The position numbers were made by a program, and so were the translations under genes. From assembly GCF_004010195.1 (NCBI RefSeq), contig NC_057718.1, positions 40,068,101 to 40,132,100 on the forward strand: a stretch of DNA of 64,000 nt, written 5' to 3'. Under the pieces are notes generated by a model. That model was not told the origin of the DNA, searched no databases, and worked only from the letters and a program-made list of their open reading frames with translations. Source of the stretch: Chiloscyllium plagiosum (lineage: Eukaryota). Each line of letters begins with the position of its first letter. The stretch's first letter is position 1. Positions 47,701 through 50,700 of the stretch are shown one piece after another.

Positions 47701-50700
47701 TTATATTTTCAAAAGGTTTTGAATTTCATTAACTCATTTATGTTTCTGAAATTTATTGTCATTAACCGTCTGTATTCCTTTGTCTTTCTCAGGAGTTGTT
47801 GCTGATGGAGTGGCAAAATGGGTTTTCAACCTAAATCTTGTTCCAAGTATCTTGAAACAGGCCCGTCAACCCAAGGGATTAGAGAATGCAGAGGAACTAG
47901 TGGAAGAAGAGAACAGGGTTCCTGTGAGTGAGAAGTACAAAGAGCTTGACCTAGAAAGGATACTTGGTAAGAAGAGTGTTTATTAATTTCACTGGAACAT
48001 TAATGAATATATTGCTTGATTATCAGGTGTAAGGTTATTAAGAAAAAAAAATTATAATCTATTAGACTATTCAAGTATTGTACATCAAACAGTCAATGTA
48101 GGACAGTGACTTTTTAAAAAAAATTCTGGTTGCAAGATAAAATATAAATTGTTTCATGGCACATTGCACATCCCAGAAGCAACTCCTCGGCCAGTGTTCA
48201 TGATGTGCAATCCACCAATATTTAGCTTTATTGTCCAGCAGAGTAAGCGAGTGGTCAGTCTCCTACCGATTCTCTATGATGGATACGCTGTAACTAAACC
48301 TAAAGAGAATGTAGAAGACAACCAAAAAGAGAAAATGCTGGAAAATCTCAGCAAGTCTTGCAGCATCTGTAAGGAGAGAAAAGAGCTGACGTTTCGAGTC
48401 TAACAGAGCTTTGACAAAGGGTCAGTTAGACTCGAAACGTCAGCTCTTTTCTCTCCTTACAACTGCTGCAAGACTTGCTGAGATTTTCCAGCATTTTCTC
48501 TTTTTTGGTTTCAGATTCCAGCATCCGCAGTAATTTGCTTTTATGGAGAATGTAGAAGAGCCTGAGTTGCTATTATTGATGGCCTTTATTTTTTACATTG
48601 CTTTAAAGATTGGCCTTCCAGTTGCAGAGGGTGGCAGGGGTGGGGAAGCATGCATCTAAAGTCTGATGGATGGCTAGCCCATGGCTTTTTCATCCAGCTC
48701 TGATTCATTCTTTACTGTATGGTAGATGGTTAAGGTGCCTACTAGCACAACCACTTTTTGTGCCTTTTGAGTTTGGGTCTTAATTTCATCCCTGCTGTCA
48801 TAATATTGTCAGTGGGCATGCGTTTTTTTTCACAAGCTTTGAGAAGTGGGAAGCATATCACCTGTGTGCAGCAGGAGCAAACCCCTGCTGCCCACCTCCT
48901 CAGATACCAAGAGATGGTGGTCTTACTCCCAGTCTCCCAGTGATGATGAACAAACAACCATATTTCAAAGTCACTGTGATGTGTGGCTTTTGAAAGTTTT
49001 AAGCAGTCATGGTGTTTCTGTTCATCGTCTGCTGTTGGCCCTTTTAGGTTGTACAGATTAACTTTGAAAAAGTTGGAAAGGTTTAATGATTTGCTGCATT
49101 GCATCTTATAAATGGTTTACACTGTAGTCACACATCTATGGTGGATGGGATACTAATCAAGAGATCTGTTTTGAGTGTAGTTCGTGTTTTGCTTGTCACG
49201 GTGGGAAATATTTATTCAAACACCTTTTATTTGTGGAAAGTATTTGGACAGCCCGGTAGTGAGATGTTAGCCACATAGTATGTGATCTCTTGATGTGTTC
49301 TTGTGGGCAAACTATTTGTTGGCCTAGTTAGATTTCTGATTAAAGGTGAGCCCTTGACAACATTCCTGCTAAGCTGTGTGGCTGTGCAGATACTGGGAAG
49401 ATACTGGATGCATGTCAGTTCCGTTGCGAGTCCAGGTAATCTGCAAATGCTGTAACTGATGGAAAAAGCCATTGCAGCTCTGACTTTGTCTTCATCTTCA
49501 GCCACTTCACTTTGGAAAGAAAGTCTTGCAGGAAAAACAGGCCTGCAATGGTAACAGGTTGATCTTATGTTTATCTTGTTTTCATCATTACTACTTTTTA
49601 ATGTTTGTATCTGTACTTTAGTTAATATAAATTGGAATTTAGAAGAATGAGTGGGGTGATTTTATCGAAACATATAAAATTATGAAGGAAGTAGATTAGG
49701 TAGAAGCAGGAAGGTTGTTTCCACCGGTGAGTAGAACTAGGGAGCATACTCTCAAAATAAGGGGGAACAGATTTAGGATTGAGTTGAGGAGGAACTTCAC
49801 CCAAATGGTTGTGAATCTGTGGAATTCTCTGCTCAGTGAAGCAGTTGAGGCTTTTATGAATGCTTTTAATGAATGCTTTTACGGCAAAGATAGATTTTTG
49901 AACAGTAAAGGAATTGAGGATTAAGGTGAGTGAGTGAGTAAGTAGAGCTGAGGCTATGAAAAGATCAGCCATGATCTTCTTGAATGGCGGAGCAGGCCCG
50001 AAGGGTCAGATATCCTACACCTGCTTCTAGTTCTTATGTTCTTCATAATTATCACTTTGTAACTTTCAACATTAGTTGTACAATAATCCTTCTGTTGGAG
50101 TACAACTTTGCTGATTTGTTTTTAAATAGTCTTTTTTTTGAAAAAAGTTCCAAAAAAGGGGACTAAGCAAGTTGTACAGATGCACAGTTCACAGATTATA
50201 TGGCTATGACAGAATTTTATAGTAAATTTTACAAGAAAAACACCCCGTTCCTGTCAGTTTTTCTTCTCAGCTGACATTTTTCCATCCTGGCATCATCCTC
50301 CTAAGTCTGTTTTGCATGATTTGTGCCTATTGACATCATCTTCTAATATGGTGATTGGATTTGCATTATCATGCTCGACCTGTGGTTTAACGAGTGCTGT
50401 ATATAGTTTTAGCATAATCCCTCAACTTCTCTGCTCTATCCCTCAGCTAATAAAATAATGCATGCTATTTGCCGCCTTAGGTACCTTACTTGCCAATCTA
50501 ACTCCTTTTAAGAATCTGTAGGCATGAACTCCAAAGTCCCTCTGCTTTGTCTTGCTAGTATCTTCCATTTATTGTGTGTTCCCTTGTTACAAGTTTCAGG
50601 GTGGATTTCCTCACAATTTACAAGATTGCATTTTATTTCCCATTTTACTGCAATTTACCATGCCATCGATATTTTCCTGTAACCTAAATCGTTTCTCACC

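Follow-up and report, generated by a model that had tools for sequence, protein, structure and literature searches.

Minimal hammerhead ribozymes of Penelope-like elements (PLEs) were described by Cervera and de la Pena (2014; PMC4209133), who report about 1,300 U3-A8 matches in Schistosoma, pairs on opposite strands, and ribozymes with no activity as monomers and low activity as dimers. Natural U3-A8 hammerheads are also reported in PMC3088659, where activity in vitro is cited. In the anole PLE of Frangieh et al. (2024; PMC11167929), there are two internal initiation sites and the hammerhead cuts with protein only. Arkhipova et al. (2013; PMC3846280) describe TATA and initiator motifs in the pseudo-LTR (pLTR), inverted ends and tails, and the Drosophila Penelope element of PMC2377424 has a TATA-less internal promoter and an intron. 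A search of titles and abstract openings, covering few subscription papers and no repeat databases, returned nothing on the vertebrate family described here or on 5' ends at stem I.

The window, that is, the whole 64-kb stretch of Chiloscyllium plagiosum DNA that was analysed, contains at 48405-48447 what is, judged by its sequence, the motif of a minimal hammerhead ribozyme whose core has U3-A8. With the minimal type I hammerheads of metazoan PLEs, among them the U3-A8 variant of the Cercyon elements of Schistosoma mansoni, as given in PMC4209133, it has in common the core, the extra base after A9, the G10.1-C11.1 pair, the palindromic 15.2-16.2 segment lacking a stem III loop, a 4-bp helix I and covariation at U3-A8; both also occur mostly as solo copies of truncated elements, with nearby opposite-strand pairs. 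It differs in belonging to a vertebrate, putatively Neptune-type element, in a helix II of 5 bp rather than 7-8, in the fixation of U3-A8 in one very uniform family, and in the pairing of the locus copy by its own antisense arm. Two internal reverse-transcription starts would define the tail here, as they do in the green anole Poseidon PAc (PMC11167929), for which uncut RNA is reported as the insertion template and RNA-seq as having no ends at the cut site. The ORF of PAc, however, starts inside the ribozyme, whereas the ATG lies about 170 nt after +1 in the present element, and the PAc hammerhead is C3-G8 and has been assayed, while the present U3-A8 family is known from sequence alone. The Adineta vaga Penelope has a low copy number, compared with thousands of copies here, and the account in PMC3846280 does not relate its start site to a hammerhead. 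Non-LTR retrozymes (bioRxiv 10.64898/2026.07.22.740005) are, like the copies studied here, non-coding, pLTR-derived, hammerhead-bearing and PLE-mobilised repeats, but form head-to-tail tandem arrays, unlike these dispersed solo or head-to-head copies; a retrozyme, with at least two tandem units bearing complete hammerheads, was rejected for this locus, which has no tandem array and lies in a window with one motif.

A relaxed descriptor of the minimal hammerhead, which allowed any Watson-Crick pair at 3-8 and required 4 bp or more in stem I, 4-8 bp in stem II and a palindromic stem III, found a single site on both strands of the window and none among 150 dinucleotide shuffles of it, which argues that the motif is not a chance occurrence. 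All segments listed by a first-pass annotation of this DNA were found in place, namely AGAGCT (48405-48410), TTGACAA (48411-48417), A (48418), stem II (48419-48433), GAAA (48434-48437), C, GTC (48439-48441) and AGCTCT (48442-48447), all on the + strand. The core U3-U4-G5-A6-C7-A8-A9 and the extra A (48411-48418) were assigned from the sequence and the haplotype counts given below. A48418 lies between positions 9 and 10.1, and G48419-C48433 is the G10.1-C11.1 pair of stem II, which has the 5 bp claimed for it, one of them G-U, and a 5-nt loop (48419-48433; pair probability of 0.99 in the isolated motif, and covariation). G12-A13-A14, the palindromic A15.1-C-G-U16.1 (ACGT, 48437-48440) and C17 occupy 48434-48441, as assigned from the sequence and the descriptor of PMC4209133; stem III, the palindrome ACGU, is possible in a dimer only, and the predicted cut after 48441 falls at +35 from the inferred start. 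Stem I had been read as 6 bp, but the family has 4 bp (48407-48410 with 48442-48445; sequence and covariation), because the junction bases 48405-48406, which supply the two outer pairs, are part of neither inverted-repeat arm; they are a chance extension, outside the family sequence, at a place where parent copies have T. Most copies begin at the position equivalent to 48407, the A of stem I, and not at 48405-48406. Together with the Watson-Crick 3-8 pair and the short helix I (4-5 bp, here 4) with covariation, the extra base, G10.1-C11.1 and the palindromic 15.2-16.2 are features of PLE minimal type I hammerheads, and these and the position in a PLE pLTR uphold the Penelope-type identity first proposed. 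Rfam gave nothing in the window that reached gathering score, and between 47900 and 48900 no hammerhead family matched at E values up to 10. A microRNA precursor (MIR6457 and others) was rejected at 104 bits against a cut-off of 140; the microRNA-family matches lay on both strands, as would be expected of any long hairpin.

The motif sits innermost in the right arm of an inverted repeat (48317-48412 and 48417-48512; 96 nt, 92% identity). Between identical 14-bp target-site duplications (48305-48318 and 48546-48559), the left arm is an inverted, 5'-truncated terminal-repeat copy on the - strand (48320-48404; 93% in self-BLAST, with the inverted repeat and the fold), running from the short 3' end, without tail, to the stem II loop, and antisense to the 3'-most two thirds of the ribozyme. 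The sense arm (48407-48544, + strand, 138 nt) is the transcribed part of the pLTR, 95-99% identical to dispersed copies; it spans the inferred +1 A through the long 3' end and alone carries the optional 34-nt tail (48511-48544, + strand), which distinguishes two 3'-end classes and corresponds to the PLE tail of PMC11167929. In 25 of 85 sampled copies the ribozyme is covered by such an antisense arm. A RAB3GAP2 host exon lies upstream (47793-47966, + strand; Pfam RAB3GAP2_C, E = 5.9e-05; AG/GT borders), and further co-linear + strand RAB3GAP2 matches were found at about 40572-40793 and 50949-51080. Because such exons flank it on both sides, the motif is intronic and sense to the host pre-mRNA, which confirms the orientation given in the first-pass annotation. 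The segment 48317-48512 is a near-perfect 96-bp intronic hairpin in the RAB3GAP2 pre-mRNA, and is likely an ADAR or dsRNA substrate.

Comparison with other copies indicates that the motif is a terminal-repeat hammerhead, carried by a putatively Neptune-type Penelope-like retrotransposon. Exact matches in the 3.56-Gb genome numbered 1,441 for a core pattern and 3,811 for a downstream pattern, with 0 for the reversed controls. In copies that extend upstream, a pyrimidine-rich 3' region leads to an ORF with similarity to GIY-YIG and reverse transcriptase (RT) domains (RVT_1, E = 1.9e-05; GIY-YIG, E = 3e-04; both just under the Pfam cut-off, and from fragments of different broken copies). A single ORF with RT followed by a C-terminal GIY-YIG, a C-x4-C-x2-C linker between RT and endonuclease (EN) in several copies, a one-sided tail of 30-40 nt and an inverted 5'-truncated copy agree with a Neptune-clade EN+ PLE, the clade name depending on the linker, of the CX2-5CxxC form given in PMC8557442 as diagnostic for Neptune PLEs. 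The hammerhead lies in the pLTR, about 350 nt past the ORF stop, and recurs 5' of the ORF start, in a repeat unit of about 3.4 kb pieced from different copies; none of 10 long loci was an intact full-length copy with both ends. Among 20 loci holding the ORF start, 7 had the ribozyme about 770 nt upstream, 5 of them starting at or next to stem I and 2 extending further. In 12 of 170 arms the ORF body was joined directly to stem I, at varied positions and mostly via a shared A; we read these joins as template jumps at the RNA end. Five loci (L274, L275, L281, L291 and L292) have the order repeat unit, 5' ORF part, repeat unit, with ORF stretches abutting stem I, and contigs of other runs have the same ORF-to-stem-I junction position.

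One degenerate pattern, in which only positions 3 and 8 varied, matched 1,612 C3-G8, 1,650 U3-A8, 148 C3-A8 and 109 U3-G8 copies; positions 3 and 8 were paired in 3,262 of the 3,519 matches and mismatched in 257, and the mismatched copies listed (30 loci each) look like single mutants of either family. The first-pass annotation had left room for U3-A8 being a one-off, but the 1,650 matches make it family-wide, and the covariation that it suggested is borne out, pairing at 3-8, in stem I and in stem II being kept across sister families. In seven hand-picked copies from three families, changes on both sides were seen at 3-8, at one stem I pair (C-G/U-A) and at one stem II pair (G-C/A-U/G-U between families), and sliding the partners abolished pairing in the same seven copies. 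U3-A8 arose as a single event in one lineage, which means that its high counts are no independent evidence of selection, and the covariation reflects few lineage events, not thousands. Nor does U3-A8 retain the element of surprise given to it, with a PLE minimal hammerhead case in PMC4209133 and natural U3-A8 in PMC3088659. After insertion, G12 had changed in 19, C15.2 in 22 and G16.2 in 23 of 85 copies, and A13, A14 and U16.1 in just 0-2 of 85; the catalytic G12 undergoes CpG decay in inserted copies. The core was intact in 42 of the 85, some truncated copies being scored as damaged.

The same pair could have arisen as a neutral double change, CpG decay converting G8 to A beside C7 and C3 then becoming U, in a lineage for which the ribozyme no longer mattered. 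C7-G8 would indeed be a CpG, U3-A8 is a single lineage event, the cut site is devoid of copy ends (see below), and cleavage is reported in PMC11167929 as dispensable for insertion in vitro. The lineage nevertheless retains two ribozyme CpGs that decay at 18-27% once inserted, the stems covary between families, and the same pair arose in Schistosoma PLEs (PMC4209133) and in other natural hammerheads (PMC3088659); we consider a neutral origin unlikely and favor selection on the parent ribozyme.

Copy ends were mapped on the first 100 of the 3,811 downstream-anchored matches, from one contig and with both arms of head-to-head pairs included, each copy being extended against an intact natural copy. 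Fifty-seven of the 100 5' ends clustered in 7 nt around the first stem I base (about 2.2 expected), 29 of them exactly at its A, which is the main family 5' end; 17 copies reached further upstream and 26 were shorter. None of the 100 began exactly at the predicted cut and two began 2-3 nt before it, in the microhomology range (1.6 expected); at the upper 95% bound, cut-site ends would make up about 6.5%. The 3' ends formed two classes, 56 short and 44 with tail. A TATA-like box was found within 45 nt in 38 of 128 U3-A8 arms, at -30 to -34 in 36 of the 38 (mode -31). In the two sister families 3 of 16 and 2 of 5 copies have it at -30/-31; since these sets include loci picked for upstream sequence, the position of the box counts and its frequency does not. 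A TATA box about 31 nt upstream of stem I is conserved in the three families. With 5' ends piled up at stem I below the TATA box and none at the cut, the RNA likely starts at the first base of the ribozyme and is copied uncut. The gap in ends at the cut is no proof that the parent never cuts, since 5'-OH fragments might be unstable or uncopied. An extra G at the junctions, as a cap signature, found no support, 9 of 32 direct junctions having a G, close to the number expected by chance. None of the sequencing runs listed as carrying the element was recorded as RNA. A poly(A) single-cell run placed 79 reads on a parent copy, about 31-fold over the cut, and showed no position with many molecule starts or ends, a result that carries no weight given the library type, the low depth and the uncertain species; a second sequencing run gave 0 reads.

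The pile-up of 5' ends could also mark a 3' splice site, with a pyrimidine tract and AG, as in Drosophila virilis Penelope, whose intron ends at helix I (PMC4209133). The parent has a long pyrimidine tract followed by AG exactly there, and 11 copies begin directly after this AG and 7 one base on. However, the main end (29/100) is the A preceding the G, the G comes from the element at junctions where target duplications were identified, and no upstream exon is held in common; the ORF lacks a following GT in 11 of the 12 ORF-to-stem-I joins, no consensus donor occurs among 12 GT sites in 420 nt upstream, and the TATA spacing is kept in three families, making splicing a rather improbable source of these ends. 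A stall of reverse transcriptase at the folded ribozyme or at the adjacent U tract, on a longer RNA, is doubtful to a high degree. The end falls at the stem I base, with a U run just before it, and 17 of the 100 copies read through, but a stall at a structure should leave ends on its 3' side, and few copies have them there; sister families that lack the U run likewise begin just before the core (read by eye), and read-through copies are expected from the 3' terminal repeat.

Transcription start at stem I, which we prefer to both, fits a mechanism in which the parent would be transcribed from its TATA promoter, starting at the stem I A, so that the ribozyme would make up the first 39 nt of the RNA and recur at its 3' end. 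Reverse transcription would initiate internally, at two tail sites just downstream, and run to the RNA 5' end, giving thousands of copies of 100-140 nt, often head-to-head, or jump onto another template; the templates would be mostly uncut RNA. The parent ribozyme is likely kept by selection, and we propose slow cutting, as a dimer or with the protein of the element, as is reported for other PLE hammerheads. Such a mechanism agrees with PMC11167929 in its two internal starts, in protein-dependent cutting and in insertion without need of cutting. Observed in the parent or its family are the RT, the CxxxxCxxC linker, the GIY-YIG, U3-A8, the target duplication, the inverted arm and the end pattern. 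More tentatively, as a possibility to which we would give a minority weight, the promoter in these vertebrate Neptune-type families might place the cap at the first base of stem I, and the 5' ribozyme might then act as a self-decapping switch that removes the capped 35-nt leader upstream of the ORF when it pairs with the 3' copy or meets the protein of the element. On that view the hammerhead would serve to restrain expression or to flag used RNA, not to produce the template for transposition, and the short copies, thousands in number, would preserve a fossil record of cap sites and of uncut templates.

At the RAB3GAP2 locus the insertion region has a predicted fold of -160.7 kcal/mol (z = -22). 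The whole insertion folds at -158.1 kcal/mol when free and at -118.7 with the hammerhead enforced, a penalty of 39.4 kcal/mol, and the pair probabilities of stems I and II are 0.000 in the full insertion and in four prefixes mimicking transcription, in a thermodynamic model that leaves out proteins and ADAR editing. In the isolated 43-mer, stems I and II form with probabilities of 0.48-1.0, and a slightly favored misfold pairs G5-A6-C7 with the GUC triplet (-14.4 versus -12.9). On free dimer folding the dimeric hammerhead was not the minimum-energy structure, a result made uninformative by an intermolecular stem of only 4 bp. A CUUU/AAAG mini-hairpin, considered as a competing fold or as the cause of the double change, was rejected at a probability of at most 0.001. 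Since the 96-bp hairpin is predicted to hold it paired with the antisense arm, the copy likely neither folds nor cuts. The activity in the pre-mRNA that the first-pass annotation implied, with this copy as an intronic ribozyme cutting together with a partner copy, is very hard to credit: the core is intact and sense to the gene, and the 43-mer alone can make its stems, but the antisense arm comes earlier in the transcript and takes up the stem II loop, GAAA, ACGU and the stem I 3' strand in pairing, leaving a hammerhead-pair probability of about 0 against that energy penalty, the window has no second descriptor match, the PLE minimal hammerheads of PMC4209133 show no activity as monomers and little as dimers, and copies decay at catalytic bases. 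The RAB3GAP2 copy is likely inert, predicted to be locked in the long hairpin, and we consider it probable overall that the motif is a PLE terminal-repeat hammerhead within a short head-to-head insertion in a RAB3GAP2 intron, held in that hairpin and likely never folding or cutting.

The locus itself is then an ordinary transposon fragment, predicted to be inert and of little significance. The family lends genomic support, in a second lineage of vertebrates, to the in vitro finding that the template is uncut RNA, and bears on the open question of the role of PLE hammerheads by indicating a transcript start at the first base of the ribozyme; its end map is a modest addition to the known PLE hammerheads, and the uniform natural U3-A8 family with its C3-G8 sister families makes a handy assay set.

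Four of 30 head-to-head pairs (L050, L086, L120 and L129) are perfect palindromes centered on AGCT at the inferred RNA 5' end, which would fit two cDNAs annealing by their 3' ends; other pairs meet at other short palindromes. A fourth hammerhead-bearing repeat family, C3-G8 with other stems I and II, was seen at L286 and L103 and in the window at 41128-41216 (- strand), where the copy lacks the 5' half of the core. Older, decayed fragments of related pLTRs lie on both strands in the same gene (31222-31332, 37905-37954, 42355-42414, 13451-13495 and 1173-1211). The window also contains recurring interspersed repeats of 200-900 nt on both strands (360-2450, 13670-14170, 43030-43910, 58560-59530 and others), LINE- and SINE-like by appearance.
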